NCBI GenBank assembly: GCA_041666325.1
Contig: JBAYHC010000003.1
Location: forward strand, 31,102 to 95,101
DNA from: Patescibacteria group bacterium
Lineage (GTDB): Bacteria > Patescibacteriota > UBA1384 > XYA2-FULL-43-10 > 1-14-0-10-43-13
Reading direction: 5' to 3'
Length of the DNA: 64,000 bases
Part shown: piece after piece, positions 1 through 28,079 of the stretch
Numbering within the stretch: position 1 is the stretch's first letter
How the letters are laid out: every line of letters begins with the position of its first letter
Notes under the pieces: model-generated
Told to the model about the DNA's origin: nothing
Databases searched by the model: none
Seen by the model: the letters and a program-made list of their open reading frames with translations, nothing else
Translations under genes and position numbers: made by a program

Positions 1-338
1 TTGTGCTTGCGGATAACTCCTTGCCGAAGTCAGAGCCGGTATCACCCGCACTATTATCTGCCATCGCAACGGGGCTCTCACTGCCATCACTTTCAATCGA
101 CTTAATAGCCGACTCAACCGGTGCTTCTTTATCTAAGCCGGCACCCGAGTCGCTATTCATTCTTGACCTCGTGGCCTCAAGAATGTTTCGTTGCTTTTCC
201 AATGATTCCTTTTCTTGCTTCACATTGGGCGGCAAAAACCTATATCCAGCGATTTGCTTGAGCCTGTCGTCAATGGTCCTCAATTTCTCATCGAGATCTT
301 GAAGCAGCTGCTTATTGTCATCGGACATTTTTCCCTCC
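1..338 (-). CDS. Hypothetical charged/coiled-coil protein, 3'-partial at window edge (MSDDNKQLLQDLDEKLRTIDDRLKQ...)
   Basis: Minus-strand reading frame open from ATG at 336-338 to the window start. GGAGGG Shine-Dalgarno 4 nt upstream of the ATG. Lies directly downstream of the giant gene in the same orientation. Its translation looks more protein-like than the Ser/Leu-rich plus-strand ORF 3..302. Confidence 0.45.
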
Positions 339-401
339 ATTTGAGAACACAAAAATCTTAATTAATTATAACCCGAATTTATTTTGTTAGCAAGGAAACT
401 T

Positions 402-3400
402 TTACACACCCGTACCTTCCTCGCCCTGCTCTTCTTTGGCAATAACAAAGTCCCTTACTTCAATAGTAACGCTAGATAAACCACCCCTACTGTTCGGATT
501 AACGCCAACAACCTTAGCCTGACAAATACGGTTGTGGCCGCGATCTTCAAGATCTTCTGCGAGCTCTTGATTTGACATCTCTACGGCAAATTCACGATCA
601 CTCTCCATGTGCACAATAAACCACTTAGCAGCACCCTTGATTGTGCGCTTCTTGATAATTGCCGGGAAATAATCCTGACCGACTAACTCCGTCGCAAAAA
701 TGATGTCCGGTTTGTCCCTGCTTTCTCCCTCGTCCGCTTCACGCTTGAGATCAACGTTTCCTTGAGCGCCAGGATCGGCCGGCTTGCTCTCCTCGATGAA
801 CCATTCAAAGCTTCCACTTGTTACCAAGTCGCCAATCACAACTTCGTCGCTATAGACCTTTCCTGGGCGCTCAAAGCTATCATCAACCACTATTCTTCGT
901 ATTTTGCTGGAATCAATACCGATCACCTCCCAGTTAAAACCGGTTTTTTCGCTTCTGATAATAACGCGAGGATTCCTTGCGTTTTCAAGCGCAATTCTGA
1001 CTGCCTCGACAAAGTCCTTCTTGCTGCCCCGTGTCAAGGTCCCCTTACTCATGAAGCCTTCCGGCGTCTCGAAGGCCAACTCGATCGATAAAGATTCAAC
1101 GGAACCGGGAACATCACCGGCACTAGTATCTGTGATTCTGACATCGATTGTCTCGTCAGCCTGGAACGCCCCCGACAACCGTTCGGCCAAAGTATCATTT
1201 CGGCGTAAATATTCCTCGTTCATGCAGAATTCTCTGCTGCCAATCTGAATGCCCGCGACAATATCAGAACCGCGTTCGATAGCGATCGGCTTGACAGTTA
1301 TCTTTCCACCAGAAAGATGATCAATAAATTCAGCATCAGTGGTGCCCGGATCGCTCGAATCGAGAACAACTCCGACTGACTCTACATTCCATCGCTCCAA
1401 CGATTCTTTCCCGCGATTAACTTTGACTATTCTGATATTGTATTCTTTGCCGATCTCAAAACTCTCAACCAATTCCTTTTGCGGTTCATAATCGGAATCG
1501 AGGTCAAACTCTCTTGTTTGCTCGTCATAGTCAAAAGAGATAGTTTTTCCGCCATCGACAGAACTTGGCATCACGCGTACGCTGATTGTCTCGCCACTCT
1601 GAAGCAGACGCGAAGCAACTTTGAAATCTCTTTCGGAGTATTCCTCTTTTTCATAGTACCAGAAATAGCCTTCTGCCGCATCCTCCAATTTATCAACTGC
1701 AACGAGGACTTCGGCAGCGTTTGGCTGGAGCGCGTCATCAACCGGATAGAGAGAAGCTTCACGACGATCAGCGGCCACAAAACTAACCAGATAAATCTGA
1801 CCTTCGTGCTCAACATAGATACCATGAGGTGTCCCGCCCAGATTTTCGTTTGAGTTTTCAATAAAAATATTGAGGTCATCCGCAACCGCACCCCTAAAGT
1901 CGAGGCCCTTGCTCTCAAGCTCGACTCTCTTTTCGGGCCCTGTCGGCGTCGGGTCACCCGACTCCTTGCGGTGTCCTAGATACCAGGTGCTCCTGCCATG
2001 AGGGGCAATAAGCAACTTCATGTCATCACTCTCCCGCTCCTCGGTCATAGACAGATCATTATCAACCAGACGATATCTAAATCCATTAGGACGGCCATCT
2101 CGACTCCTGGTAATCACTGTAACAAGCGCCTTAATCCCCTCGCGCTCAGCTAATACCGGCTCATCGGCGCCAACAGTAAATCGATCAACTGCATCAAGGA
2201 AGTCAAATAATCCCCTGCCGGCAATCGGCCCCTTGTCCTCAAAATTATATCCGGACAGATCAATTTTCCTTTCGGCCCCTGTCTCATTAATTTCAACATT
2301 GACCCGATATAATTGACCGGCGTTGTCTCTGTCCTCTAATGCTTCTGTGATTTTGATCTTAAAGGTCTTGTTCTCGTACTTGTCTCTTTTGCCCCTGAAG
2401 CGAATTCTCTCACCACTCTCGTTGGTAGCAGCATTGATAACGAATGTATGGCGCGCACCTTCGTGTTCGACAACAGCAGCCGGATAGCCCCCTAAATCGA
2501 TAATCATTGCCTCGATCGTGTCCCCGGCGCCAGCCATCTCCCTGGCTACCCTGAGATCCTCCGAGATGCCCGGCTCAATTTCATCGCCTACCTCGACATT
2601 TACTCTAAACAATTGTCCGGGATGGTCGCGATCCTCCAGCGCATCCGTTATCCTGATGTTAAAACGTTTGTTTTCAAACTTAGCTCTCTCGCCCTTGACA
2701 TGGATTCCCTCACCCTTGCTATTGGTGGCGGCGTTGACAATGAAGACGTGTGTCTTGCCGCTGGCCAATCTGAATTCGATCGCCGGCTCACCGGCACTGT
2801 CAATTATTTTTGCGTGAATCACCTCGTTAGCAGAGGCTAAGTCCCTGGCGATTCTTAGTTCATCTGAAATAGTCGGTCCGGCCTCAGTTTCGGCCCCGAT
2901 TTCAACATCAACCCTAAACAGCTTACCTGGCTCCTTGTCGCTTTCAATCGCTTCTAAAATCTTCACTTTGAATGTTTTATTCTCAAACTCATTGCGGCGA
3001 GTCTTGAGAGGAATCCCCCTCCCATCTTTGTCTCTGGCACTATTAATGACAAAGACAAAATCTTTGCCATGATGACTAAGTTCAATTGCCGGCTCACCAT
3101 CACTATCTATTACCTTGGCACCAACAACATCGCCACTCTCCTTGAGCTCTGAGGCAGCATCAAGCCCTGTTGAAAACATTACAAATCTTATGTCAACACC
3201 GAGAAGTGTTCCTGGCCTATCGATATTACCCATTGCCCTTGTTATGCGAAAAGGCTTCTTGCCGGGGCTAGACTTATCTTCGTCTAATTCAACATTTTCT
3301 CCAGAGGCAAGAACAAGAGCATTAACAGGCAAACGGAATTCGGCGCCATCGTATTCGACCACAAGCACGGCTTTGTGCTTAGATTCAAATACCATCTCAG

Positions 3401-6041
3401 CCAATATTGTTTTGCCAGCGTCCCTAAGCTGCTGTGCTGCGGCAAGCATCTTCGCATCCGTTTCCGAAACAACTTCGGCTTCTTGGCCCAAATACCAATG
3501 GTAGCCAACTAATTCAGAGTGTACAGCACTTCTTCGATTCACTCCTGGTCCCTCAATCGGAGCAAGATCTTCACCCAACCTCTTGATAGCATAAGAAACT
3601 TCTTCAAAGGCAATATCGTCATCTTCCTCTGCACTGTAGGCCTTAGTTTTTCGTGTGCTTTCTGATATCAGATCGCCTCTTGAGTTGTGCATAGGAATGA
3701 ATTCCCACCAACCCTCAGTCAAACGAATGATTATACGTCGCCCCTGCCTCATTTCTCCAAGCGCTTCCTGAAAACGAGGGTCTTTCTTTGACTTTCTGTC
3801 AGACTCATCATAAGAAATAGGACTAAATGATCCCATATCTGTGAAGCCCTCTGGGGTCTCAACTTCAATCGCCTTCCCCTTCTTCGTCTCTGTCTTTGGC
3901 TCTTCTGGGTGATACTCTGTGATTACGGCTAGCAGTTCATCGCCTCCAATCTCTTGTCCCTCGAGCATCAACTGTTCAATTTTTTCGTTTGACGTCAGAT
4001 CGTCAGCGCCAACGATTTCCTTCCTTCTACCTTCATTAATATTATCAAGAGACTCGTTAACCAAAACAATCCGTTCATTCTGATTTAGAACCCCAAATGA
4101 AGAATTCCAACCTTCCCCTGAATCACTCTTCTCTGCAACCAGAACATCACTTCGATCAGGCAAGTAGAGATAGCTTTTATCATTGTTAAATTTGAAGGCG
4201 AAGAATCGTCCGCCATGGAGGGTGATCACCATTGTCCAACTGACAGAGGCATCTAATCCCTCCGGTTTTAGGATGCTATTTTGAAAATCAAAGCAGAGAG
4301 ATCTCAGTGTCTCCCACATCTTCTTCTCATTGATGGTTGACAAGCTGTCATAGGCACCGGCAAGATCTTGAGCAATCTCCTGCAAACGATCCTGGGTCAA
4401 GCCAAGGTGTTCCGCGTGAGAATTAACGGCAATTAATATTTGCTGGTTCCCTCTCACCTGCTCAAACAAGAATGCGGACTGCCCTTCTTTGCCCCGTTCT
4501 TGTCGTCTCTCCCCTGTCGTGTCATAGGGATCAATCCTCTCTTCTCGTCTCTCTGACTCGTATTCTGCCGCATCTTCTTTGTCTCCTGCAGCTTCAACTG
4601 GAGAGGGTTCGCCCTCTGACTTCGGGGACGGTGTCGGAGCGCCCTCAGGTTCAGGACCTGGTGTCGGCGGTGTAGGTGTTGACTGTCCTTCTAGCGCTGA
4701 AGCCTCCTGTGCTTGCGGCGTTCCCTCCACTCTCTCCCCTCTACCTTCTACCCTCCCCCTTCCACCCTCTACTGTTCCAGTTGGCACATTTCCCGAAACA
4801 CCAAACTCTTTCTTTTTGCCGAAGAAATGGGAGGCACTCTCGCCCAGCAAATAAGCAAAAACTCCGCCAAGTTTTAGTTTCTCGGCAGTGCCAAGCCCAG
4901 CCAATAAGGCTTTTGGCATGCGCGCATCCAGGAGGTGACCCGCCTGTCCGTATAGGCTCTTTAAGCTCTCTCCGTCAAGCGTGTTGAATGTGCCACTCTT
5001 TCCTATTTCATTGACACGTTTGATTACGCCTTGGAGCCATTTGAGTTCATCCTGACCATTGGGCATCTGGTCGTAAGCAAACTGCCCCTTGTCCTTGAGA
5101 TTCCAAAAAACTCGATGAGTGTCAGACATCACAGGATTGTTGGGGTCAATTTTGGCAAAGGCCGTGGCTAGATCAGTGTTATTCTGGTCGTAGTTTGAGG
5201 GACCAAGCGGTACACCGGCAAATATTCCGGTCGCAAAAGTAAGCACCGAGGTTGCAACGGAGCGAATTTTTTTGAATCTCTCCTCCCCTGTCTTACCATA
5301 AACATTTTCCGTAATTTGCTCTACTGCCTGTCTTTCTGCTTGCGAAATTTCTAATTGATAACGAGAAAACTTCTCCTCGGTAAGAGTCCCGTCTAACGCT
5401 TCTTGCCTCATGCGAGTAACAACCTCGCCAACAGCTTGCTGCTTCGCGACCTCAGCCGCCGCTCTGTTCTTGCCCCAACCAAAGTGTTCTGCAGCTTGCA
5501 ATAGACCGTCATAGCCCTCTTTCAGACCAACGCCCCAGACAAGCGGAGTAAACACTCCTACACCGGAAAACACTGCCGTGGCGGCAGCGCCAAATCCGCC
5601 AAAAACTTTGGCGCCGATCTTGAGAGCTTTCTTCCAGTCGCCATTCTCGGTATAGATTCCGGCCTTGCGAAGATCGTCATCAATGTTTTCAGAAGGCTCT
5701 CTGGAGCTCCATTTGCCGGCCTGGTCGAACCAGGCACGAATCCGGCCATAGCTCTTGGAAATAGAATCGTCCGACTTATCAAGTCTCGCACCAAAACCAC
5801 CTAGTCCCACCCTTTTGCATACACGAGAAAGCAAAGAGAAGGGCTTGAGTCCCCCGTAGCGCTCGATCGCCCTATCTTGGTCTGTCCGGGCTAGATTGTT
5901 GATCCGTTCGAGAACACGAACCTTGATGTCGCTTCGCTCAACATTCTCGGTCTCTCGCTCTGGCTGAGCCGGAGTGCTTGCAACTTCGCTGGCAACATCT
6001 TCCCTCGCCATCTCTCCATTTTGTATGCTTGTTAAACTCAA
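402..6041 (-). CDS. Giant (1879 aa) membrane-anchored repeat protein, candidate surface adhesin. It has an N-terminal glycine-zipper TM hairpin, a Pro/Thr/Glu-rich linker and three tandem ~105-aa repeats.
   Basis: Uninterrupted 5.6-kb ORF. TTG start 5 nt after GGAGGG. Segments KVFGGFGAAATAVFSGVGVF and SVLTFATGIFAGVPLG are predicted TM. Low-complexity linker TPTPPTPGPEPEGAPTPSPKSEGEPSP. Repeats of the form VFVINSARDKDG...FENKTFKVKI...LFRVDVEIG occur three times. Confidence 0.8.
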   Translation of the reverse strand: MSLTSIQNGEMAREDVASEVASTPAQPERETENVERSDIKVRVLERINNLARTDQDRAIERYGGLKPFSLLSRVCKRVGLGGFGARLDKSDDSISKSYGRIRAWFDQAGKWSSREPSENIDDDLRKAGIYTENGDWKKALKIGAKVFGGFGAAATAVFSGVGVFTPLVWGVGLKEGYDGLLQAAEHFGWGKNRAAAEVAKQQAVGEVVTRMRQEALDGTLTEEKFSRYQLEISQAERQAVEQITENVYGKTGEERFKKIRSVATSVLTFATGIFAGVPLGPSNYDQNNTDLATAFAKIDPNNPVMSDTHRVFWNLKDKGQFAYDQMPNGQDELKWLQGVIKRVNEIGKSGTFNTLDGESLKSLYGQAGHLLDARMPKALLAGLGTAEKLKLGGVFAYLLGESASHFFGKKKEFGVSGNVPTGTVEGGRGRVEGRGERVEGTPQAQEASALEGQSTPTPPTPGPEPEGAPTPSPKSEGEPSPVEAAGDKEDAAEYESERREERIDPYDTTGERRQERGKEGQSAFLFEQVRGNQQILIAVNSHAEHLGLTQDRLQEIAQDLAGAYDSLSTINEKKMWETLRSLCFDFQNSILKPEGLDASVSWTMVITLHGGRFFAFKFNNDKSYLYLPDRSDVLVAEKSDSGEGWNSSFGVLNQNERIVLVNESLDNINEGRRKEIVGADDLTSNEKIEQLMLEGQEIGGDELLAVITEYHPEEPKTETKKGKAIEVETPEGFTDMGSFSPISYDESDRKSKKDPRFQEALGEMRQGRRIIIRLTEGWWEFIPMHNSRGDLISESTRKTKAYSAEEDDDIAFEEVSYAIKRLGEDLAPIEGPGVNRRSAVHSELVGYHWYLGQEAEVVSETDAKMLAAAQQLRDAGKTILAEMVFESKHKAVLVVEYDGAEFRLPVNALVLASGENVELDEDKSSPGKKPFRITRAMGNIDRPGTLLGVDIRFVMFSTGLDAASELKESGDVVGAKVIDSDGEPAIELSHHGKDFVFVINSARDKDGRGIPLKTRRNEFENKTFKVKILEAIESDKEPGKLFRVDVEIGAETEAGPTISDELRIARDLASANEVIHAKIIDSAGEPAIEFRLASGKTHVFIVNAATNSKGEGIHVKGERAKFENKRFNIRITDALEDRDHPGQLFRVNVEVGDEIEPGISEDLRVAREMAGAGDTIEAMIIDLGGYPAAVVEHEGARHTFVINAATNESGERIRFRGKRDKYENKTFKIKITEALEDRDNAGQLYRVNVEINETGAERKIDLSGYNFEDKGPIAGRGLFDFLDAVDRFTVGADEPVLAEREGIKALVTVITRSRDGRPNGFRYRLVDNDLSMTEERESDDMKLLIAPHGRSTWYLGHRKESGDPTPTGPEKRVELESKGLDFRGAVADDLNIFIENSNENLGGTPHGIYVEHEGQIYLVSFVAADRREASLYPVDDALQPNAAEVLVAVDKLEDAAEGYFWYYEKEEYSERDFKVASRLLQSGETISVRVMPSSVDGGKTISFDYDEQTREFDLDSDYEPQKELVESFEIGKEYNIRIVKVNRGKESLERWNVESVGVVLDSSDPGTTDAEFIDHLSGGKITVKPIAIERGSDIVAGIQIGSREFCMNEEYLRRNDTLAERLSGAFQADETIDVRITDTSAGDVPGSVESLSIELAFETPEGFMSKGTLTRGSKKDFVEAVRIALENARNPRVIIRSEKTGFNWEVIGIDSSKIRRIVVDDSFERPGKVYSDEVVIGDLVTSGSFEWFIEESKPADPGAQGNVDLKREADEGESRDKPDIIFATELVGQDYFPAIIKKRTIKGAAKWFIVHMESDREFAVEMSNQELAEDLEDRGHNRICQAKVVGVNPNSRGGLSSVTIEVRDFVIAKEEQGEEGTGV

Positions 6042-6172
6042 CTTGTCCCTCCAAAATAGCTAGTAAGCCCCACCAGGGGGCCCTCTGTGGGGGCGTGTAA
6101 GCGCGTAAGCAGTAAGCTTAAAGCATCGAAATATCCTCGAATTGCTTATTAGCCTACTCGCCTACTTGCTTA

Positions 6173-6508
6173 TTAGCTTTGTTTGTACCCCATCACCTCT
6201 GCCTTGAGACGCAAGGCCTCATCTGCAGCCAATGCGTCCACCTGAATTTCGTGAGAAACAAGAAATTCGACCACTTCTTCATCGGCAGTGTTGACACCGC
6301 CAAGAAGTGATTTAAATTTCTCGAACTCCCCTGTTTCCTCGAGAATGTCAGCAATTCGAAGCATAACCCGACTTCGTAAAGATATAACGAGGTTTTGGAT
6401 CATCGCCTCCTTCTCCTCTGGTGTCAGTGAGTTTAGCTCAAGATAATCAAAAATATCACTTTCTATCAGCTCTTTGATGCTAAGATCTATCGCGCCTGCT
6501 GTCATCAT
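6173..6508 (-). CDS. Small acidic helical protein (~110 aa), paralog of 10605..10922, candidate chaperone or adaptor for the adjacent giant protein.
   Basis: GGAGGG Shine-Dalgarno immediately 5' of ATGATG. The C-terminal half aligns with the other small ORF (SLLGG..N...V.EFL......ALAAD.AL....VMGY versus TLLSEGDGNNVQQFL...AL....MSYLGY). Confidence 0.6.
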   Translation of the reverse strand: MMTAGAIDLSIKELIESDIFDYLELNSLTPEEKEAMIQNLVISLRSRVMLRIADILEETGEFEKFKSLLGGVNTADEEVVEFLVSHEIQVDALAADEALRLKAEVMGYKQS

Positions 6509-6527
6509 CCCTCCATAATTCTTCGAT

Positions 6528-7713
6528 CTAACCCAATATTCTTTCCACCTCTCGCATCACTCTCTCCGGTTCAATATCTGATGCGCCAACACCTTCGTCC
6601 GTATAATAGCTATTCGGAGTGCGCCAAGCCGGATCATAGGTTCCACGGCTTTCCCTATATGCATCGCGAGCCTTCTCGTGCATTACTCGATGAGTGCGTG
6701 CGGTCGACCACTGAACAGGGTTACCTAGAATAATCATGATGTTAGGTGTCCCGAATGCACCAGCGAGATGTCCCAAGCCAGTATCTGGTGTTATCGATAG
6801 GTCAGCCATCTCCATAATCACTGGCATGTTATTTAGCGGCTCTTTTGCCCTAACAATACGATGACCGCCACTACGTAAACGATCAACCATCTCACCATAT
6901 CGTTGTGATTTCTGTGGATCTGGATCATCGATGAACAATATCTGCGCATCGGGATATTTGGCCTTTATCTGCTCCAAAACCTCTGCCCATCTTTCCGGTC
7001 TATACTCTTTTGGCATAACAGATGATCCCGCCGAGATAACTATAAGTTTCCTAGAGCGCTCAAGCCCATACCGATCACGAATCTCGTCGGCACGGGCATC
7101 GAAATCAGCGCCCTTTTCCATGAAATGGTTCTCTGCATTGATATTGTCAACCAGCTTTCGGCCAAGCATAATTTCAAAGTTACGCATAATGCGCGCTGGA
7201 ATAGGATCATATTTGACCGCTCTTTGCTCGTTCTCTGGTGATTCTTCCATCTGCCATGTGTTCCAATCCACAGACATAACACGAGACAAGTCGTTAGCAT
7301 CATTACCGGAAAGCCCAAAGACAGAATAATCTTCAAAATTTTTATGAGCATTAATTATAAACCGTTCTTTGTTGTCCCTGAAGGCACTACCGATTTCCTT
7401 ATAGTCTACTATCTCTACAAGCCCTGGATACTGATCATTGACAGATCGAAACAATCCAGGTTGCGTGGTCACAAGTTTGATAGGTTTGCGATGACCAGTT
7501 TGGTCATAATATCGTTTTATAACCTCGAGAATCGGGACTGTCAGAATTGCATCACCCAACGGATAGTCGAAGATGACAACCACTTCATCTGCTCGCTCCA
7601 AGCCCTTTATTAGTGGTGAATGCTCATAAAACTCTGGTTCGTACGGGGCATCACCAACGGCCGATTCCTCAAGCAAAATATTTTCCGCTTGATAATATGC
7701 ACGGTTCATCTCG
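6528..7713 (-). other. GT9 (heptosyltransferase-like, GT-B fold) domain region of the 1355-aa protein.
   Basis: Motif-based, see the parent CDS. Confidence 0.6.
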
Positions 7714-10595
7714 CGATTGACATACTCATCAATGCCAATATACTTCTCGGTATTGTCGCCAAACCGACGCTTGTTGTGGCGCTCAAGCTCCCGCTTATAA
7801 TGCTCTTGCCGAACAGGATCAAGCCTGTTAAAATTCTTGAGTTCATTGAGACGAACGCGCAAAAACTCATACTTCGGCGGCAATTTTGCCACCAGCTTCT
7901 CTGCTTGATCAGCTGAGTTACGATACCTTGAAATTTCAGTAAAATGCTTCTTGAGACGATCACTGCCATGCTCAGCAGAATAATCTGGAACATGCGGCAA
8001 AGGTTCTGGCGACGGTCCGTGTTCAATCGGTTCGAGTGGGGCGCGACCGATAATTGGCGGCATAAATGGAACATCAACCTGTGAATCTGGTGTTGGCAAG
8101 CTCCAAATCTTGTTGTGCTCCTGTGTCACAACCGGAACCTTGTCGACAATCGTGCTATTGCCGACTCCCGGACCTTCATATGTTGCCAGGATGCGGAAAT
8201 TCTCGCAGCCATCTTTACCCTCGCCAAAAGTTTGCGCCGCCTCGCAGAAGCGGAAATTGGGTACCGGATGGCCATCTTGCAGCATCATCTTGCCGCTGGC
8301 GTCAAATTTAAACAGAACCTTTATCAGAGGATTGTCTTTATCAATAATCGCATTGCCGCGACCGTCTACCGGTACATCATAACAAAACTTCTGGGTCTCC
8401 CTCGACATTGAGAAAAGCATCTTCATGCGATTACCAGATATCAAGCGCTGAGCGTTAGTCGAGAGACTGTCATGATAAGATCCACGTGGAGTCATATGAG
8501 AAACATTGAACACGACATTGCCCTTAGGATCAACGCCATTGCTTCCGCCCCACCACAGCTTAAGTTCATTTTTGTCATAAAGCCCCGGGGTGTTGTTGTC
8601 GTACCACAAGCGGCGATGAATACGATCAAAATATTGCTTGTATTTATCTAATATCTCGCCGGCGCCAACCTTTCTGGTCCTGTCAACCATGGTGGTGATG
8701 GGGGTTTTCCGCTCTTCGACATAGACTCCGCTATCTTTGAGTATTCCTCTCGCTTGCGATGTCAGGTCGCCATTCGCATCAAAAGTTAGGCCTTTTACTG
8801 CCGGGACTGGCTCACCATCCTCAATCTTGACGATGTCATATGTGCCATCAGGGTTCTTGGCGCTAAAATCAAAACCCTTGGGCAAAGTGTGCTTGTGGCC
8901 GAGGAGGTTGACTATTGTCTTTTCATCGCCGGGTGCGGCCTGCGCCTCCTTGCCTATTGCCAGCCAACGATTAAGCTGCTGCAACAGTGTGTGCTTTGGC
9001 TGCTCGCCAAAGGGTACATTGTCCTTGCGGCCAACCCAAGATTCGACTCCTCCCTGAAGTTTGTCATCGAAGAAAGCCCTGACCTCCTGTGCCACCATGC
9101 CAACCCCGACACCAATTGCCAGACCTTTGATGCCGGCCTTCCAGGCCCGGGCACGTTTGAACTTCCGAAATTCTTCATTTTTCTGACGGGTGCCGTCAAC
9201 CATTTGCTCCATTTGGGTCTCTCGAAGCGAGCCAAAGAAATCATCGAAGCTGCGGTTATCGGGAATCATTCCTGCCTGCTCCGCGGCGCTGCGCAGAGCG
9301 CTCTTGGCTTGGTAACGAATCTTGGCAAGCTCGCAACGCTCTCGCTCAACCTTCCTCACATCGGAGTATGTCAGCAAGTCAATTTTGTCTCTATCAGATA
9401 TAGTAACACGCGCCTCAATCTCAGCCAGTTGTGCCATCGCCGACTGGAACTGCTCCGGCGTCAGCTCGCGGGGTTCGCCGACTCTGCCTCCTTCGTAGAC
9501 TGCATCACGGATTCCACTCATCAGCTCTTGAGTGCTCTTGGTTTCGTATCTATATCCCTCCATCTCGACGCGGCGTGGCGAACGATCGGGATCCCATTTT
9601 TTGTTCTTAGCCATATCGCGAAAGTGTTTCTTGCGCTCTTCCTCCGTCCGCTTGGCCTCGGCCATCGCGCCAAAGGCAGCCCCGGCGATAGCGCCACCAA
9701 CGAAGGCACCTGTAGCATAGGCGGCCTTCCTGGCAACTGACTGAGAGAGCTTGGTGCCAACACAATAAGCGAGCGCAACAGCAGAAGCAAGCGTAGTCTC
9801 ATTAACCCATTTGCCAACAGGATTGCGATGGATTCGCTCGACGACGCGGTCGACGGCATTGAATTGTGCTTCGGTGCGCACACCTTCTTTGGCCTTACCA
9901 ACATAGACATCAAATTGCAAGTTAAGCCGCTCAAAGGCAGAATCCTTGTTCTCTTCGCGCTCGATCTTAGTCCTGATCTTATTTGCGACCAACCAAAGAT
10001 TGTCGGCGTACATATCACCGCGCTCGATCACGCCCGGCCTGGCACCCTTGAGAGTTGTGAATAACCTGGCCTTTTCTTGGTCGAAGGTTTCCTTGTCTGG
10101 TAATTCTCCGGTGGCATAATCCTTGATCAACTGGCGTATCTGGTCCTTGATACCGCCGACTTGTTCTCTTTCTTCCGGGTTCTGCTCCTGCGTCTCGTCC
10201 AAAAGCTCGCGCACCTCGCCTGCTTCACGATGTATTGCTTCATCAAATTCTTGTGTAAAACGATCAGCCACCGCTTCCATAGCCTGATCATGGGCTGTCT
10301 TGTCGCCAGACTCATTGGCATATAGATTGCCCGACTCCATAATGTTCTGTCGAGCCTTTCGCACCTCTTTGTCTCGGTAGTATTCTCGAAGCCAATTGTG
10401 CTTCCAGACCGCACGCAGCTTGCCTCTAAACCCCCGGGTATCCTCCGGCTTCGCTGTTAGTTTCTCCTCGCCAGTATCAACGGCATGACTTTCGATAGAA
10501 TCAGAGACATCAACGATTGAGATCTTCTCGACTTGGCGACCATTCTCGGCGGCATCAATTTGATCGGGAGTTGGTTGGTTTCCGCTTTCTGGCAT
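6528..10595 (-). CDS. Large (1355 aa) membrane-associated protein with a C-terminal GT9-family (ADP-heptose heptosyltransferase-like) glycosyltransferase domain.
   Basis: AAGGGGG Shine-Dalgarno 6 nt before the ATG. Start is translationally coupled to the stop of the upstream small ORF. Predicted TM segments GAFVGGAIAGAAFGAMA and GLAIGVGVGMVAQ. The C-terminal ~400 aa carry GT9 hallmark motifs: N-terminal VVVIFDYPLGDAILTVPILEVIK and C-terminal SITPDTGLGHLAGAFGTPNIMI, compared with DSGPMHLAAALGTP in WaaC/WaaF. Confidence 0.8.
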   Translation of the reverse strand: MPESGNQPTPDQIDAAENGRQVEKISIVDVSDSIESHAVDTGEEKLTAKPEDTRGFRGKLRAVWKHNWLREYYRDKEVRKARQNIMESGNLYANESGDKTAHDQAMEAVADRFTQEFDEAIHREAGEVRELLDETQEQNPEEREQVGGIKDQIRQLIKDYATGELPDKETFDQEKARLFTTLKGARPGVIERGDMYADNLWLVANKIRTKIEREENKDSAFERLNLQFDVYVGKAKEGVRTEAQFNAVDRVVERIHRNPVGKWVNETTLASAVALAYCVGTKLSQSVARKAAYATGAFVGGAIAGAAFGAMAEAKRTEEERKKHFRDMAKNKKWDPDRSPRRVEMEGYRYETKSTQELMSGIRDAVYEGGRVGEPRELTPEQFQSAMAQLAEIEARVTISDRDKIDLLTYSDVRKVERERCELAKIRYQAKSALRSAAEQAGMIPDNRSFDDFFGSLRETQMEQMVDGTRQKNEEFRKFKRARAWKAGIKGLAIGVGVGMVAQEVRAFFDDKLQGGVESWVGRKDNVPFGEQPKHTLLQQLNRWLAIGKEAQAAPGDEKTIVNLLGHKHTLPKGFDFSAKNPDGTYDIVKIEDGEPVPAVKGLTFDANGDLTSQARGILKDSGVYVEERKTPITTMVDRTRKVGAGEILDKYKQYFDRIHRRLWYDNNTPGLYDKNELKLWWGGSNGVDPKGNVVFNVSHMTPRGSYHDSLSTNAQRLISGNRMKMLFSMSRETQKFCYDVPVDGRGNAIIDKDNPLIKVLFKFDASGKMMLQDGHPVPNFRFCEAAQTFGEGKDGCENFRILATYEGPGVGNSTIVDKVPVVTQEHNKIWSLPTPDSQVDVPFMPPIIGRAPLEPIEHGPSPEPLPHVPDYSAEHGSDRLKKHFTEISRYRNSADQAEKLVAKLPPKYEFLRVRLNELKNFNRLDPVRQEHYKRELERHNKRRFGDNTEKYIGIDEYVNREMNRAYYQAENILLEESAVGDAPYEPEFYEHSPLIKGLERADEVVVIFDYPLGDAILTVPILEVIKRYYDQTGHRKPIKLVTTQPGLFRSVNDQYPGLVEIVDYKEIGSAFRDNKERFIINAHKNFEDYSVFGLSGNDANDLSRVMSVDWNTWQMEESPENEQRAVKYDPIPARIMRNFEIMLGRKLVDNINAENHFMEKGADFDARADEIRDRYGLERSRKLIVISAGSSVMPKEYRPERWAEVLEQIKAKYPDAQILFIDDPDPQKSQRYGEMVDRLRSGGHRIVRAKEPLNNMPVIMEMADLSITPDTGLGHLAGAFGTPNIMIILGNPVQWSTARTHRVMHEKARDAYRESRGTYDPAWRTPNSYYTDEGVGASDIEPERVMREVERILG

Positions 10596-10604
10596 ATTAC
10601 CCCC

Positions 10605-10922
10605 TTAATAACCTAAGTAGCTCATTCTGAAGTTGATCAAGGCCTGTGCCGTCACCTCGGTAATGTCGGGAATGGCGCGCTGAAGAAACTGTTGAACGTT
10701 ATTACCATCACCCTCACTCAACAGAGTACTAAGCTCTTCGATTTTTTCCGGTGGTGTCGCCGCCAAAAGAGCAGCATGAATATGCTCCTCTACCTTCTCC
10801 CGCAAATCTTTTCTGGCCTCGAATTTGGAGTCCTCATCGAGGTCGCTTAGCGGGCTTTCTTCTATGAGTCTGTCAACAAATATCTCGAGTTCGTCTTTGT
10901 TTTCTTCCCCTGCCATAGCCAT
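10605..10922 (-). CDS. Small acidic helical protein, paralog of 6173..6508.
   Basis: ORF with AAAGGA ribosome-binding site before the ATGGCTATG start. The track start at 10949 is a TTG with no RBS, so 10922 is preferred. Its stop is coupled to the start of the 1355-aa gene. Confidence 0.55.
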   Translation of the reverse strand: MAMAGEENKDELEIFVDRLIEESPLSDLDEDSKFEARKDLREKVEEHIHAALLAATPPEKIEELSTLLSEGDGNNVQQFLQRAIPDITEVTAQALINFRMSYLGY

Positions 10923-10959
10923 TCCTTTCGTAAATAGATATTTACTCAAAAAATCAGTC

Positions 10960-11197: not shown

Positions 11198-12247
11198 CTA
11201 GCCGAAGAAGAAGAATCTGGCGTCCGGCCACCACAGCACGTTCAGCACCGCGAGGGCGAAGATGACGACACCGACGACGATGAGGATCCGAACCCACCTC
11301 GGGATACGTCCGATCCCCATGACCCATTCACTGATGCCGTAGGCGATGCTGGCTGCGAGGAGAAATCCCAGCCCCAGCTTGAAGATGCCCCAGAGCCACT
11401 CCCAGATGGTTCGGCCAGAGCCGGAATCCGGACTAGCCGGTGGGGCTCCTGCCCCGGGCGCGGGTGCGCCGGGCGCCGGTGCTGCTCCGGGTGTTCCGGG
11501 CGTGGGCGTACCAGGTGCCGGGACCACCACGGCAGGCAAATCATACCGCCCAGCGGGCGGAGACGGCCGACCGGTCTCAGCTTCGAGCAACCGCACCCGA
11601 TCATCGAGCGCCTTGTCGTTGAACTGCAACCTCCCTATCTCCCTCTTCCGGTTGCGGTTTGCCTGTTCCAGGCTCGCTACTCTGTCTTTGAGCCGAGAGA
11701 CAGACTGCGACAGCGCATTGAGCCGAAGCTCGAACTTGGCTGCCCAGCGTGCCACCTCGACCCTGACCATCTGCCGGATACTGGCGATCGAAGCGCCGAA
11801 GCGCTGGCCGGCCGACTGGTGTCGGCTGCTGCCGCGCCAGGCATGGCGGCGGCGCTCGGCGTAACGGCGCTTGTCGTAGCGCTTGCCGCCGGCGGTGACG
11901 CCGGTATTGCCACTAGACGGGGCCAGGGCGGCCGAAGGCCGCTTGGCGGGCGAGGTGGTCGTGACCGGCGGTGTACCGGAGCCCGGCCAATCCGGATCGG
12001 GTGCCGTGACCTCCGTGCCCGGGGCAGGTGCCGGCGACGTTGCCGTCGCAGGCGTAGCCTCTGCCGGAGCCGAAGCCTCGGCAGGCGCCTGCGGCGCGGC
12101 TGGCTTCTCGGGCTCGGTCGGCGCCTGGGGCGCGGATCCACCGTCCTCGGTGTAGACCTCGACGGCGCCCGGCGCCGCCATGGCGCCAATGTTGATCGAA
12201 GCGAACACGAGTGCGGCCACGAGGGCCGCCGCGAACAATACCTTCAC
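11198..12247 (-). CDS. Secreted or membrane-anchored Pro/Ala-rich protein encoded in a ~67% GC island. It has a signal peptide and a C-terminal TM segment.
   Basis: GTG start 7 nt after AGAGGGGAG gives MKVLFAAALVAALVFASINIGAMA-AP. Pro-rich tracts APQAPTEPEKPAAPQAPAEASAPAEATPATATSPAPAPG and PAPGTPTPGTPGAAPAPGAPAPGAGAPP. Central coiled-coil-like segment. C-terminal hydrophobic segment ILIVVGVVIFALAVLNVLWW. GC content is far above the flanks. Confidence 0.5.
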   Translation of the reverse strand: MKVLFAAALVAALVFASINIGAMAAPGAVEVYTEDGGSAPQAPTEPEKPAAPQAPAEASAPAEATPATATSPAPAPGTEVTAPDPDWPGSGTPPVTTTSPAKRPSAALAPSSGNTGVTAGGKRYDKRRYAERRRHAWRGSSRHQSAGQRFGASIASIRQMVRVEVARWAAKFELRLNALSQSVSRLKDRVASLEQANRNRKREIGRLQFNDKALDDRVRLLEAETGRPSPPAGRYDLPAVVVPAPGTPTPGTPGAAPAPGAPAPGAGAPPASPDSGSGRTIWEWLWGIFKLGLGFLLAASIAYGISEWVMGIGRIPRWVRILIVVGVVIFALAVLNVLWWPDARFFFFG

Positions 12248-12428
12248 GGTCGTACTCCCCTCTTCTGCCGCCCTTACGGGACGGCGCTTTCGCCGGCCCT
12301 GATGGGCGGCTCGAAGGACCATTTGAATCTGGCCTTCTGGCAATTGAATCCGGCTTTGGCGTTACTTCGCCAGCGCAGATACAATGTGTCAAAAGACAAC
12401 CTTACCCCTTAAAAAAATGCGACAATGT

Positions 12429-21842: not shown

Positions 21843-23999
21843 CTAGACTCGGAAGATGTCGCTCGCAATCTCAGCAACTTCTAACTGATCGAGAATAACT
21901 TTTCTATATCGCACATATGTTATTGCAACTCCTGCAACAAGTGTGAGCATGAAGCTCGCAGATGCGGCAGCACCACTCTTTGGTAAGTTTGGAATGATCG
22001 GCGTCTCTGTTTCCGTGACCGTTGTCGTGACACTCGATGCTGTGACAATGGTCGTTTTAATCTTTGTCTTGGCAGTATCGGTCAAGATGGTATCGTCGTC
22101 TTTAAGTGATGCAGTATTGGTTAGAGTCTCTCCGGCAGCAATATTCCCAGACAAAACAACTCTAATCTTAATATAGCCGCTATCCCCTGGCGCAATGGTA
22201 TCAAGAACAATACCGGTGTTAATCAAGCCCTCAGGCAATGTTTTTTCCATACTACCGTTGAGTGATATGATCGTGGTGCCAGGAACATACTGGGTATTGG
22301 CTGGCAGGGTATCAAGGAAGCGTACCACATCTGCTGGCGCATTGCCCTTGTTAGAAAACTCAATCTTGTATTCTAGGGTATCGGTTGAAAAAGCTTCATT
22401 ATTATCAACAAAGTTTGACTCGTTGGCAGTGAAGTTTCTAACTAATTTTTCAATCTTAAGATCGGCTTTCTTCACCTCAACTGCCGGCCTTGGCAAGCGG
22501 ACCATAACTTCGTCTCCGTATTTGTTATACATAACGAAGTCAAAGCTGGTGCCGTTCTGAGGCTGATTTGGAATTGGGTTTTTGACCCGAACCGTAAAGG
22601 TAAAATTGAGCGGCTGGTTTTCTGTCAAATCTACTGCCGGCCAACGGATCAATTTGGCATCATTGCCTGTTGTTCCATCAGTGATCACACCGCTGTCTGA
22701 AATATTAGTCACTTCGGCATACTCAAGTATGTCTGCAATACCGTCCTCGACTACGAAGCCTGGCTTTCGTCCGCCCTCGCTCGTAGCAGTAAGACTGTAA
22801 ACAATTATGTCTCCTGGATTAGCGTCTAACTCCAGAGCACTACCGCTGCGTTTCGCTGCCTGTTTGCCGGAAGTCGTATTGGTAGCACCTTTGCGCTTCA
22901 CAACGTTGCCTTCATCTGGTCTGAGAGTAATCGAAACCTCATCTTCTTTTGAGATGCTCCCGGCAGTGGCGATAGCTTTATTCTTAACAATGGATTGTGC
23001 TGTAATTACGCTTGGAGATTTGACCTTAAACCTGAAGGCGTGTGTCTCGTCTTGTCCGACTGGATGAGACATAGGCAGTCCATCTCCTACCAACTTATCA
23101 AAGTCAGAGTCAGGCAAAGACATAGACGCTCCGCTCACGACATGCTCAAGCGTGCCGGGAACAAATGTAAGCTCAGATGGCTTAATATCTTTGACTATCA
23201 GATTATCAATGCTAGCTGTGCCAGTATTGGTTACATCAATGTTAAAGGCAAGCTCCTGGTTTGATGTAGCGCTTGTTTGATCAAGAAAATCATTCTCGCC
23301 ACGGCTAATGTTTCTTACTTTTTTATCAACGCTGAAATTAACAGCATTGGTTATTGCAGTTGTTCTAACCCTGAAGGTGATAAATCCAGCAAAAGGCCAA
23401 CATGCATTCACGGTCCCAATGTTTGCACCATTGGCCGAAAAAAGATCGTCATTGAGCGTTACTGGAACCAAACCGCTTCCAGGCAAGATGTCGTCACGCC
23501 TCTGCACCTCTTTGTACCACTTAACAGAGCCTGCAACAGGCTCGACTTGAGCATTCTTGTCTAGCTGTATTGTAAGACCAGGGGTACCGATAACTCTTCC
23601 GTCGACACTTGTTTCAGTGGCCACTGTCGAGGCATTGCTCGCCGCAATACTTGCCGTGAGATTGGCGACAAGATTATCGGTTCTATCAGGAATATTTAGT
23701 TTAATTACAACATTCTCAGCGGGAGCACTAGCATCCTCAGTTGCAGAACCGTTGTGATAGTAAATCACTCCCTCAAATTCGTCTCCTGCGCTTCCAGATA
23801 TAGGATCATCCCACGTCCTCTGGTTTTGCGTTGCGTTTCGTCCAAATAGCAACTCATAGTCGCCATCAAGAAAATTAAATCTTGGCTCGAGCGCTTGAGC
23901 AGAAACTGCAGGGAAAACGATAAAAGAGAGCAAAGAAACGAGCAATGAAAGCCCGGTGATGGACTTGATCTTTGTTTTCAAGTATTCATTAAATCTCAT
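21843..23999 (-). CDS. Secreted surface protein with DUF11 (conserved repeat domain) repeats and a C-terminal LPxxG-like sorting signal.
   Basis: Signal peptide LSLLVSLLSFIVFPAVSAQA. DUF11-like units LEYKIEFSNKGNAPADVVRFLDTLPANTQYVPGT and AFNIDVTNTGTASIDNLIVKDIKPSELTFVPGT. C-terminal NLPKSG, then a hydrophobic stretch, then RYRK. Confidence 0.75.
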   Translation of the reverse strand: MRFNEYLKTKIKSITGLSLLVSLLSFIVFPAVSAQALEPRFNFLDGDYELLFGRNATQNQRTWDDPISGSAGDEFEGVIYYHNGSATEDASAPAENVVIKLNIPDRTDNLVANLTASIAASNASTVATETSVDGRVIGTPGLTIQLDKNAQVEPVAGSVKWYKEVQRRDDILPGSGLVPVTLNDDLFSANGANIGTVNACWPFAGFITFRVRTTAITNAVNFSVDKKVRNISRGENDFLDQTSATSNQELAFNIDVTNTGTASIDNLIVKDIKPSELTFVPGTLEHVVSGASMSLPDSDFDKLVGDGLPMSHPVGQDETHAFRFKVKSPSVITAQSIVKNKAIATAGSISKEDEVSITLRPDEGNVVKRKGATNTTSGKQAAKRSGSALELDANPGDIIVYSLTATSEGGRKPGFVVEDGIADILEYAEVTNISDSGVITDGTTGNDAKLIRWPAVDLTENQPLNFTFTVRVKNPIPNQPQNGTSFDFVMYNKYGDEVMVRLPRPAVEVKKADLKIEKLVRNFTANESNFVDNNEAFSTDTLEYKIEFSNKGNAPADVVRFLDTLPANTQYVPGTTIISLNGSMEKTLPEGLINTGIVLDTIAPGDSGYIKIRVVLSGNIAAGETLTNTASLKDDDTILTDTAKTKIKTTIVTASSVTTTVTETETPIIPNLPKSGAAASASFMLTLVAGVAITYVRYRKVILDQLEVAEIASDIFRV

Positions 24000-24059
24000 T
24001 TTCCTTCTCCGTGAAACACACAGGGAGCACTTTGACGTGCTCCCGCATGCTATTAATTA

Positions 24060-25601
24060 CTAATTCGTTGGTGGAAGATTTGGAGCGGCAGCAACTACTA
24101 CTGCGTTTGCCGTTGCAGTCTTCTCGGCAATACCGTCAGCCTTGGCGTAAGCGGTGTTCACCAATGGGTACGTACCCGCTGGCGGACAACCATAAACGTT
24201 ACCTTTGAGAATAATCGTTTTGGTTGCACCTGGTGCAATTGTGCCGATGTTTATGCCACCAGTTGTAATAATCTGATCGTTGACAGTGTTCCCGTCAACC
24301 CTGGTTGATCCGGAAACATAGTTAACAAACTGAGGCAGAGCGTCACGAACAATGACGTTGGTCATGTTCACGCCACCGCTGTTTGTGACCTTGATACGAT
24401 ATGTAATATCCTCAAGAAACTTAACGGTTGGGTTCACGACTGGATTACCATTGACGAGAACTTCTTTGGTAAGAGTCAACCCTGCCGGTGCGAGAGAGAC
24501 AACAAAGACAGTTGCCTGATCCCGGTCCTGCTCAACATTGTTCATGAAGACCTTGGCCAGGTTGTTGAGTGTCCACTCTCCGACCGGCAAGTTGCCGATC
24601 CTGGTTCGGTAAGTTATATATCTTATTCCCCCAGTGCCAGGAGCAATGTCAGGCATCGATATGCCGGTAGTGGCGATAGTATCAGGAAGTGTCGTAAATG
24701 CAGTCGGACTTGTCCATAATCTGGTCGAGCCGGCAACCAGCGACAATGCTGGTGGAAGAGTGTCCTTGATTGTAACTTGAGTAGCTGCAGCGGTGCCCAG
24801 ATTGTTTACTGTCAGGCGGAACGCAACTTCATCGCCAGGATGCACATTACCGGTTGCACCAACTGACTTCTGCCAATCATCGCTACCGGCCAGCGAAACA
24901 TGTTTGTCAATACCGATATTTGGTCTGCCCTTAATGTCAGCCAAGAAGGTAACATAGCCCGAATATGGCCAGCACCCCTGAATATCACCGATATTTACGC
25001 CAGTGTTGGCGATACCATCAGGCAGATTGGCAATCACTGGAGCTGTGTCAGGCCCATTTGGAAACGTAAATTTCTTAGTTGAACCGTTAACGTATTCGAT
25101 ACGACCAGCTACCGGCAGATTGAGGGTAACACCACTATTGCCTTTGACTTGTCCATTGATGACTGTGTCTCTAATTGGATCTGTCTCGTCGGACCAGAGC
25201 CAACTTGTACCAACCAGCTGCGTGTGTTCGCCGGCCGGGAAATCAACACGGATGGTTGTTCGATGTGCAACTGTATCGGGTACACCATTATGGAAATAAA
25301 CCATGAAGGCAATCCGATCTCCGATATTAACATTGTTGAGCGGATCACTCCACGTGTTAGAGGTCGTCTTACCCGCCATGAACATCTCAATATCACCCTC
25401 ATTTGAACCATCTTCTGCCGGGCCCAAGAAGTTGAAGCGCGGCGTTCTGGCTTGCTGCGCCTCTGCATTCTTTACATCAGTACCAGGCAGTGCGACAGCC
25501 GACACGATTGATGCCAAAGCCACGACTCCGATCAAGAGTTTTTTTGTTTTTGTCCAGAAACCCCCCTTTGAGCTTGAGGTAACATTCTGAATGCTCTTCA
25601 T
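24060..25601 (-). CDS. Secreted DUF11-repeat surface protein, paralog of 21843..23999.
   Basis: Signal peptide. Shares the post-signal PRFNFL motif with its neighbour. DUF11-like units VAFRLTVNNLGTAAATQVTIKDTLPPALSLVAGS and ITYRIKVTNSGGVNMTNVIVRDALPQFVNYVSGS. Ends in NLPPTN. Confidence 0.75.
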   Translation of the reverse strand: MKSIQNVTSSSKGGFWTKTKKLLIGVVALASIVSAVALPGTDVKNAEAQQARTPRFNFLGPAEDGSNEGDIEMFMAGKTTSNTWSDPLNNVNIGDRIAFMVYFHNGVPDTVAHRTTIRVDFPAGEHTQLVGTSWLWSDETDPIRDTVINGQVKGNSGVTLNLPVAGRIEYVNGSTKKFTFPNGPDTAPVIANLPDGIANTGVNIGDIQGCWPYSGYVTFLADIKGRPNIGIDKHVSLAGSDDWQKSVGATGNVHPGDEVAFRLTVNNLGTAAATQVTIKDTLPPALSLVAGSTRLWTSPTAFTTLPDTIATTGISMPDIAPGTGGIRYITYRTRIGNLPVGEWTLNNLAKVFMNNVEQDRDQATVFVVSLAPAGLTLTKEVLVNGNPVVNPTVKFLEDITYRIKVTNSGGVNMTNVIVRDALPQFVNYVSGSTRVDGNTVNDQIITTGGINIGTIAPGATKTIILKGNVYGCPPAGTYPLVNTAYAKADGIAEKTATANAVVVAAAPNLPPTN

Positions 25602-25895
25602 GGGCATCCTTTCTTTCTATTTCTTAACTTTAATTTAATTAGTCTTATTCTATCTTTTCGTCTATCAACAAGCGCTTAAACATAACACGGCCAATACCTG
25701 TTGTCAATAGGCCACATCTCATCCGTGCGTTTCATAATATTTATGATGTCTAGAAAACAATTTTTCCCACCACTGCTTGTCGCTACTTCAAAGCAACAAT
25801 CGTTCTTCTGATGGTTGCTTTGGGTAACGGGCGACTCAAAGAGTCGCCCTGGGATCGGATGGGGACGCTTCTCCTGGAGAATTGTCCCCGGTTTG

Positions 25896-27914: not shown

Positions 27915-28079
27915 CTTCCCTCCCCTTTCTGCGTGATCACCTGCTGTGCAGGCGGTGATCGTCTGTGTGTGTACTATCTTCCTGGCAGCCTGCCCTGCCA
28001 GAAGATCATTCGGACTTAGCCTTCGCTTAGTCCGAGACATATGAAATGATTAATTAATTATTCACGCTAGCTCTCGCTC

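Follow-up and report, generated by a model that had tools for sequence, protein, structure and literature searches.

Two tandem cassettes of a small DUF5663 protein and a giant modular protein with exchangeable cargo in a Patescibacteria chromosome

A large part of bacterial diversity falls within the Patescibacteria, and for most of the lineage-specific core genes of this group no function is known. Here we analyse four adjacent genes in a 64,000-nucleotide stretch of the genome of a Patescibacteria group bacterium (assembly GCA_041666325.1, contig JBAYHC010000003.1, positions 31,102 to 95,101; this whole stretch is referred to below as the window). The four genes lie on the minus strand in the order d-B-c-A and encode proteins of 105, 1355, 111 and 1869 or 1879 amino acids (aa; Table 1). 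They form two tandem cassettes of different subtype, d-B and c-A, each composed of a small DUF5663 protein and a modular giant, and this type of cassette is specific to Patescibacteria. It is highly probable that its anatomy comprises a cognate small partner, an N-terminal module (N-module; ~855 aa for B-type giants, ~400 aa for A-type giants), a junction and a swappable C-terminal cargo. B is 100% identical to P0001, listed at NCBI as 'MAG: glycosyltransferase family 9 protein [Patescibacteria group bacterium]', and public annotations as 'GT9 family protein' cover only the last third of such molecules. The length of A depends on its start: a TTG at 6041 yields 1879 aa (open reading frame, ORF, 402-6041), while the public call, P0028, uses the ATG at 6011 and yields 1869 aa. 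An earlier inspection of the DNA without database searches, hereafter the sequence-only reading, had described four tightly coupled genes. Such coupling is indeed seen between d and B, where 9 nucleotides (nt) separate the stop codon from the next ATG and contain a GGGGG ribosome-binding site, and between B and c, where the gap is 19 nt with a GGAGGG ribosome-binding site, but it does not extend to c and A, which are spaced by 131-161 nt of strongly structured RNA.

Table 1. Features of the two cassettes and their immediate surroundings, in window coordinates
Feature	Position	Strand	Basis or remark
Upstream 381-aa Pro/Ala-rich membrane protein	11198..12343	-	ORF translation; just upstream of d
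d: 105-aa acidic DUF5663 protein, d-type	10605..10922	-	ORF 10605-10949, likely ATG at 10922
B: 1355-aa giant, B-type N-module and GT9 cargo	6528..10595	-	Translation, Pfam, homologues
B-type N-module, aa 1-855	8031..10595	-	Conserved across Patescibacteria; homologues, genome loci, profile end
Gly/Ala-rich hydrophobic helical hairpin of B, aa 266-313	9657..9800	-	Hydropathy, family-wide conservation
Third Gly-rich hydrophobic helix of B, aa 487-505	9081..9137	-	Hydropathy, AlphaFold2 model; Lys/Arg-rich upstream
Junction motif of B, aa 843-856	8028..8069	-	Cargo exchange point
GT9 (GT-B) cargo of B, aa ~960-1355	6531..7718	-	Pfam PF01075, TIGR02193, PDB matches, alignment
c: 111-aa acidic DUF5663 protein, c-type	6173..6508	-	Translation, DUF5663 hidden Markov model, hhalign
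Structured c-A intergenic spacer	6012..6172	-	Minimum free energy -57.1 kcal/mol, z-score -3.98 against shuffles
A: 1869-aa giant, A-type N-module and non-enzymatic cargo	402..6011	-	Translation, HMMER search
A-type N-module, aa ~30-410	4812..5954	-	HMMER search, alignment, hydropathy
Pro/Thr/Ser/Glu-rich linker of A, aa ~440-500	4542..4724	-	Ser+Thr+Pro fraction 0.40
Conserved middle region of A, aa ~474-734	3840..4622	-	Matches P0058, P0062, P0065 and others
Four tandem OB-fold (oligonucleotide/oligosaccharide-binding) repeats of A, aa 861-1258	2268..3461	-	Three clear, first degenerate
Possible further degenerate OB-like unit of A, aa 1468-1559	1365..1640	-	Weak, iterated profile only (E 0.024, then 0.0067, then included)

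Both small proteins are acidic, with isoelectric points of 4.3 (c) and 4.5 (d), and they are DUF5663 paralogues; on both counts the sequence-only reading was borne out. A BLAST comparison of c with d finds no significant similarity (E 0.77). At the profile level, an alignment of c-type proteins matches one of d-type proteins in hhalign with a probability of 96.6% (E 6.5e-10; the c-type alignment includes the small ORF of locus L051, discussed below), and a DUF5663 hidden Markov model built only from other loci scores d at 92 bits and c, over its full length, at 25 bits. P0081, which is identical to d, carries a precomputed match to PF18908, and hmmscan of d against PF18908 gives 16.9 bits, under the cut-off of 23.7. 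A word-index search with d retrieves only d itself and one relative that is 75% identical.

Of the 42 evaluable B-type loci, 39 have a DUF5663 ORF on the same strand directly upstream of the giant (median gap, 9 nt), and in the remaining three it is found elsewhere within the locus; on the A side, a small ORF of 105-128 aa immediately precedes the giant in all five loci examined. Thus, the proposal that each giant has its own dedicated small partner is supported. By profile, d matches the small proteins of B-type loci, while c shows 45-55% identity to the small ORFs that immediately precede four A-type relatives (L047-L050), and the c orthologues upstream of A-side giants are flagged 'DUF5663 (weak)'. 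The same flag is attached to the small ORF of the fifth A-side locus, L051, whose giant (P0062) shares the middle domain of A and not its N-module. Since the small protein tracks the N-module subtype whatever the cargo, it is the N-module for which it is the cognate partner: c-type DUF5663 pairs with the A-type N-module and d-type DUF5663 with the B-type N-module.

Our literature search found no paper that mentions DUF5663. In a transposon sequencing (Tn-seq) study of the Saccharibacterium Southlakia epibionticum (Wang et al., PMC10633639, Tables S1 and S2), SEML1_0162 and SEML1_0163, two DUF5663 proteins of a Patescibacteria-enriched core family, have scores of GD/ES/ES and NE/GD/GD, respectively (GD, growth-defective; ES, essential; NE, non-essential). 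The two genes are preceded by SEML1_0161, which encodes an essential hypothetical protein of 767 aa, and the structure searches of the same authors relate SEML1_0163 to the trigger-factor C-domain and to LTXXQ/Spy-like chaperones (PMC10633639). By analogy with the related protein in Table S2 of that study, DUF5663 proteins are predicted to be helical. The order of SEML1_0160-0164 (IF-2, the 767-aa protein, two DUF5663 genes and fmt) corresponds to that of IF-2, giant, DUF5663 and fmt in L036, L039 and L040, and the counterparts of the cassette in S. epibionticum are probably essential or nearly so.

The B-type N-module consists of a helical part (aa 1-510) and a beta-rich domain (aa 560-832), and its AlphaFold2 model reaches a predicted local distance difference test score (pLDDT) of 73.9. 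The module has no Pfam match and no structural neighbour in the PDB. The 27 homologues of B share only its N-terminal ~62% (~855 residues), and a genome scan with a seven-sequence alignment yields 41 loci with a B-type N-module from many Patescibacteria lineages (Moraniibacteriota, Saccharibacteria, Nomurabacteria, Paceibacterota, Uhrbacteria, Kaiserbacteria, Doudnabacteria and Shapirobacteria). The cargo that follows in B is a glycosyltransferase family 9 (GT9) domain, as had been anticipated from its motifs: PF01075 matches aa 1174-1287 (E 2e-10, 40.8 bits against a gathering score of 22), and the motifs PLGDAILTVP and PDTGLGHLAGAFGTP both align to the GT9 structure 3TOV and are invariant across the six GT9-cargo variants that we found. 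The cargo of B is 42-50% identical to that of the five other variants, among which the ~100-aa linker region ahead of the GT9 domain (aa 856-960 of B) is conserved too. PDB sequence searches with B alone or with a six-sequence profile (E up to 1) return only 3TOV, WaaC, WaaF and GT1 enzymes. B thus resembles WaaC, WaaF and the Veillonella protein 3TOV, a group of lipopolysaccharide (LPS)-core heptosyltransferases and further GT9 enzymes, in its Pfam and NCBIfam GT9 matches, in both motifs and in its best PDB matches. However, TIGR02193 matches B (E 2e-10) far under its equivalog cut-off (40 bits versus 185), the NCBIfam heptosyltransferase models match weakly, and the domain is the C-terminal cargo of a giant. 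Moreover, LPS synthesis is not known from Patescibacteria.

The point at which the cargo begins is sharply defined. In every full-length member the shared N-module profile stops at a PPFIPIxGRxPLE motif near position 860, which reads PFMPPIIGRAPLEP in B and in which R851 and E855 are invariant and P843, P847, P853 and L854 nearly so. Past this junction, 32 of 43 B-type C-termini belong to a GT2-like family of GT-A type with an SNDAD motif, six, including that of B, belong to the GT9 family and five are of other kinds (one short type in two loci and three singletons); these classes leave out L012 (840 aa) and L021 (5'-truncated), which lack a C-terminal extension almost entirely. Pfam GT2 families match 6 of 21 aligned GT2-like members, and some also carry a Ser/Thr kinase. 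On a neighbour-joining tree of the N-module GT9 cargo is polyphyletic, its six variants being scattered over at least five positions between GT2-like ones, and the closest N-module relative of B (P0002, 50% identical) carries GT2-like cargo. The exchange itself can be observed between two Moraniibacteriota loci, L007 with GT9 cargo and L030 with GT2-like cargo, whose proteins are ~88% identical over 925 residues up to GRRP(L/M)E and unrelated past the junction. Their DNA is 83.6% identical from the DUF5663 gene to the junction, then unrelated for 3.4 kb and then 75% identical again. Here the cargo has been replaced by recombination exactly at the GRxPLE junction. The C-terminal regions of P0024, P0023 and L010 (the latter equal to P0007) represent a fourth type of cargo with an F-D-H-H-G motif, possibly a DHH-type phosphoesterase, and P0024 represents a protein found on more than 200 contigs. 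GT9-cargo loci have no ORF family in common; all that we found is a clade-specific ORF of ~100 aa, shared in 8 loci.

The A-type cassette follows the same plan with other parts. A word-index search with A retrieves only A itself, and an exhaustive HMMER search finds ~45 cluster representatives of 500-1150 aa that share its first ~400 residues, with E values down to 1e-67. This N-module has Gly/Ala-rich hydrophobic helices at aa 146-168, 259-280 and ~385-405, and A-type proteins have a GKKKE stretch just after the last of them. Most A-type relatives carry the same GT2-like family as the B-type proteins (the cargo of P0029 matches the B-type cargo profile in hhalign with a probability of 99.95%, E 3e-38), P0046 and P0054 match the GT9 profile of B (E 1e-85 and 6e-113), two carry a metallophosphoesterase and a single one has a weak Tox-MPTase3 match (E 0.0024). 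In both subtypes, therefore, the usual cargo is one GT2-like family of GT-A type, with the same GT9 family as an alternative. Homology between the N-terminal regions of A and B was considered and rejected at the sequence level (BLAST not significant; hhalign probability 0.3%), and what the two share is architecture, that is Gly/Ala-rich helices. The common transmembrane-hairpin architecture of the sequence-only reading thus holds for the presence of such helices in both giants, but they are weakly hydrophobic and come with no detectable sequence homology.

The A protein of the window has lost the enzyme: it contains no GT2-like remnant (hhalign probability 0.07%) and its cargo of ~1400 aa instead includes a conserved middle domain and no fewer than four OB-fold repeats. 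The Pro/Thr/Ser-rich linker noted earlier is present, and the N-terminal end of the middle region overlaps it, so that the domain proper comprises aa ~520-715. This domain has no Pfam or PDB match, and among the proteins that share it P0062 is a DUF5663-preceded giant beside the genes for TGT, L12 and L10. The three tandem repeats described before are confirmed as units of ~101 aa (aa 955-1258, pairwise identity 44-54%), to which a degenerate fourth must be added (aa 861-954, E 9e-9). A PDB sequence search with the C-terminal region of A finds nothing. The sequence-only reading had suggested structure searches of the N-terminal region and of the repeat, given there as 105 aa: the former has no neighbour, as said for B, while the latter models as an OB fold rather than a beta-helix. 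In the four loci L047-L050, a convergent GT2 gene directly follows the A-type giant, fused to tetratricopeptide repeats (TPR) in three of them; a GT2-TPR gene downstream of A was not found at positions 1-420 of the window.

What do these cassettes do? We tentatively lean, at somewhat less than an even chance, towards a membrane-tethered enzyme that acts in its own cell. The N-module, folded or stabilised by DUF5663 as a chaperone or subunit, would anchor the giant in or on the cytoplasmic membrane, possibly as an oligomer held together by glycine-zipper helices, and would hold a nucleotide-sugar-dependent glycosyltransferase at the envelope, where the enzyme may decorate a non-LPS acceptor such as a surface protein, a pilin or a wall glycopolymer. 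On this view, B would be one such membrane-tethered enzyme, of GT-B type, A would be a non-catalytic, ligand-binding variant on a sister scaffold, and the adjacency of the two cassettes would be a local arrangement rather than a pairing of enzyme and substrate. The dominance of one GT2-like family among the cargo speaks for this reading, and a cytoplasmic cargo fits the need for nucleotide sugars, and for ATP where the cargo includes a kinase. Cassette loci sit among genes for ribosomal proteins, SecY, RuvABC, IF-2, TGT and aminoacyl-tRNA synthetases, PADLOC finds no defence-system match for A, B, c or d, related loci have no conserved downstream immunity-like gene and the counterparts in S. 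epibionticum are probably essential. The character of the system is thus housekeeping-like rather than mobile.

Several observations weigh against this reading. Mean Kyte-Doolittle values of 0.8-1.2 make the hydrophobic segments only marginally hydrophobic, and the positive-inside rule places the loop of the B type (aa 315-486) in the cytoplasm and the beta-rich domain with the cargo outside the cell, a poor fit for an enzyme that uses nucleotide sugars and works inside the cell that makes it. The A protein has no enzyme in its cargo, so that the label of a glycosyltransferase scaffold does not fit it. Sharp exchange of cargo at a conserved junction is seen more typically in delivered effectors or toxins than in housekeeping enzymes, and the range of cargo, with Ser/Thr kinases, metallophosphoesterases and the weak Tox-MPTase3 match, is likewise effector-like. 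The segment replaced between the two Moraniibacteriota loci (L007:3872-7280 versus L030:12773-16192) is larger than the cargo, as it also contains three small unrelated ORFs, of 84, 286 and 135 aa in L007 and of 109, 148 and 153 aa in L030. Beside the cassettes of L002, L004, L048, L049 and L051 there are genes for ATPases of 830-1075 aa with DUF8128 and T4SS-DNA_transf/TrwB/DUF87 signatures. SEML1_0161 would be the counterpart of the B-type giant by synteny only.

The main rival reading, possible though unlikely, is that the cassettes are instead chaperoned effectors that are exported or translocated and act on or in the host of a presumably epibiotic bacterium. Here DUF5663 would serve secretion as a chaperone or adaptor, the N-module with its weakly hydrophobic glycine-zipper helices would take care of targeting or of passage through the membrane, and the swappable C-terminal domain, be it a glycosyltransferase, a kinase, a phosphoesterase or an OB-repeat binder, would act on the host; the route might be a divergent type IV secretion system (T4SS) with the DUF8128/VirD4-like ATPase as its coupling protein. 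Such a scheme would account for cargo replacement exactly at the conserved junction between close relatives, for the diverse cargo menu, for an N-module without a known structural relative and for the outward orientation that the positive-inside rule gives to the B-type C-terminus. The small acidic cognate partner recalls IcmS/IcmW, VirE1 and the Lap partners of LXG toxins, and DUF8128/T4SS-DNA_transf ATPase genes occur in 5 of 11 Pfam-annotated neighbourhoods. In addition, the essential T4SS of Saccharibacteria has no recognisable coupling protein and may export proteins (PMC10633639). However, the window and 44 of 46 B-type loci lack a gene for such an ATPase, the loci lie in housekeeping surroundings with one cassette each, and neither a conserved immunity-like gene nor a known secretion signal or domain is found. 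Moreover, one GT2-like family makes up 32 of 43 cargos, and it is closer in kind to GT2 enzymes of the polysaccharide type than to known toxin glycosyltransferases. As a constant neighbour of the cassette, the DUF8128 ATPase was rejected for B-type loci (2 of 46). A gene with sigma70_r4/HARE-HTH signatures accompanies the ATPase gene in L048 and L049, and our literature search found no paper on DUF8128.

Known delivery systems offer only partial parallels. Polymorphic toxins such as CdiA, Rhs and the LXG toxins with their Lap partners are similar in having an N-terminal module, a junction motif, a recombining C-terminus and a small helical partner encoded upstream. The cassettes differ from them in that Pfam and NCBIfam detect no known trafficking domain (such as LXG, Rhs, CdiA or PT-TG) and, apart from the weak Tox-MPTase3 match, no toxin domain, no immunity gene is conserved, the cargo is mostly one glycosyltransferase family rather than nucleases or deaminases, the context is housekeeping and the counterparts are probably essential. 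T4SS effector-adaptor pairs, such as the IcmS/IcmW effectors or VirE1/VirE2, share the small acidic partner and, at some loci, a nearby VirD4-like ATPase; however, there is no homology, neither the window nor most of the loci contain the ATPase, and no known translocation signal is present. TcdA and TcdB are likewise giants with a glycosyltransferase domain, weakly hydrophobic helices and repeats, but their domain order is reversed, there is no TcdA/TcdB Pfam match, the enzymes here are GT2-like or GT9 rather than GT44, and the repeats sit in a separate protein. A related and still less likely proposal is that the DUF5663-giant cassette is a Patescibacteria-wide protein-delivery module, in which the small chaperone would keep the glycine-zipper module translocation-competent and the interchangeable enzymatic cargo would be passed to the host. 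If this were true, the two cassettes of the window would be two effectors with different cargo, export may use the unusual T4SS of Patescibacteria (the Candidate Phyla Radiation, CPR, bacteria), and the DUF8128 ATPases may be its missing coupling proteins.

It is improbable that the giants are synthase-type machines of the envelope. In such a machine, glycine-zipper helices contributed by several subunits would together make a channel across the membrane, a product to which the GT2-like or GT9 domain adds sugar, by polymerisation or transfer, would leave through this channel, and DUF5663 would be a stoichiometric subunit. The dominant cargo does match Pfam Glyco_tranf_2_3, Glyco_trans_2_3 and Glycos_transf_2, families that include processive membrane synthases, the Gly-rich helices are conserved and the counterpart genes in S. 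epibionticum are essential or nearly so. However, each chain has only about three weakly hydrophobic helices, GT9 enzymes are non-processive, and some giants have a kinase, a phosphoesterase or OB repeats in the cargo position, others, such as L012, no cargo at all.

Finally, it is very doubtful that B is a dedicated heptosyltransferase, akin to the bacterial autotransporter heptosyltransferases (BAHTs), that O-glycosylates A as an adjacent surface adhesin with the small proteins as chaperones, as the sequence-only reading had proposed: a GT9 domain is present in B, the genes are same-strand neighbours and probably share one transcription unit, and A has the Pro/Thr/Ser-rich linker and the tandem repeats, yet nothing that we found points to glycosylation of A by B. 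The likeness to TibC and Aah with their adhesins TibA and AIDA-I lies in a GT9-related GT-B domain encoded beside a large repeat protein. BAHTs are defined by a four-cysteine iron finger that is needed for dodecamer assembly and activity, and they have an N-terminal beta-barrel and a thumb formed by a beta-hairpin, and their substrate is an autotransporter beta-helix (PMC4358343). By contrast, the GT9 region of B (aa 870-1355) contains no cysteine, the PDB searches described above (E up to 1) did not match TibC, and B is fused to an ~855-aa membrane module, unlike the BAHTs, which are soluble dodecamers of ~400-aa subunits. The A protein has no Pfam autotransporter domain and no autotransporter beta-helix or barrel, its repeats being predicted OB folds. 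Autotransporters require an outer membrane, and Patescibacteria, the group to which the present organism belongs, are not known to have one. Nor is the pairing conserved: none of the 46 B-type loci has a relative of A, and across these and the five A-side loci (four A-type and L051) the tandem arrangement of B and A is seen only in this genome, where the structured spacer moreover separates c from A. Since the relatives of A mostly carry a glycosyltransferase domain of their own, A is a cargo variant of a sister enzyme family and not a dedicated substrate. A literature search for heptosyltransferases in Patescibacteria found nothing relevant. A tempting analogy with the adhesin glycosylation systems of Proteobacteria is thereby corrected.

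As far as we could find, the cassette, its N-modules, the junction and the specificity of the partners are undescribed, while GT9, the GT2-like family, the OB fold and DUF5663 are known. DUF5663, a core family of Patescibacteria that is essential or growth-defective in the one available Tn-seq study, is now linked to a defined partner. Whether the membrane-tethered enzyme that we favour or an exported effector turns out to be nearer the mark, the cassette is a testable unit of partner, module, junction and cargo with which to approach how minimal cells build or decorate their envelope, and the same unit bears on whether and how Patescibacteria deliver enzymes to their hosts.

The spacer between c and A contains two stem-loops, a long imperfect hairpin followed by a GC-rich stem with a short U tract (CUAUUUU), and it may be an attenuator or a terminator that uncouples A from d-B-c. 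In relatives, by contrast, the c-type gene abuts or overlaps its giant. Upstream of d, the 381-aa ORF encodes a signal-anchor, a coiled coil and two C-terminal transmembrane helices, without a Pfam match. A promoter-like site on the minus strand at 12778-12750, upstream of this ORF, matches 11 of 12 positions and has the additional TG. The ORF is probably the first gene of the same transcription unit and possibly a part of the system. GC content around it is locally high (0.56), and long antisense ORFs run through the same stretch. At the other end, position 338, the start coordinate given in the sequence-only reading, is outside A: it falls at the 5' end of a fifth ORF on the minus strand, which is incomplete and lies downstream of A. 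This ORF (MEGKMSDDNKQ...; window 1-340) begins ~60 nt past the stop codon of A and runs off the window, and a promoter-like site is located near it at 393-365.

The region is an ordinary stretch of Patescibacterium chromosome. The flanking genes encode TGT, L7/L12, L10, L1, Pth, RF-1, topoisomerase I, DprA, IleRS, CysRS and FtsW, and the type IV pilus genes for PilB and PilC are also among the surrounding genes. Rfam and tRNA scans detected no tRNA gene and no Rfam family in the window. Every 2-kb bin shows a negative GC skew, and the minus strand carries nearly all of the genes. A GC-rich island on the minus strand at 25896-28040 (GC 0.64, surroundings ~0.46) has genes for two proteins with signal peptides, 316 and 397 aa long. 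One of them has a Gly/Pro-rich tail, and the 397-aa protein has no Pfam match. Beside the gene for RF-1, positions 21843-25607 of the minus strand encode two DUF11-repeat proteins of 718 and 515 aa, which are probably surface proteins.

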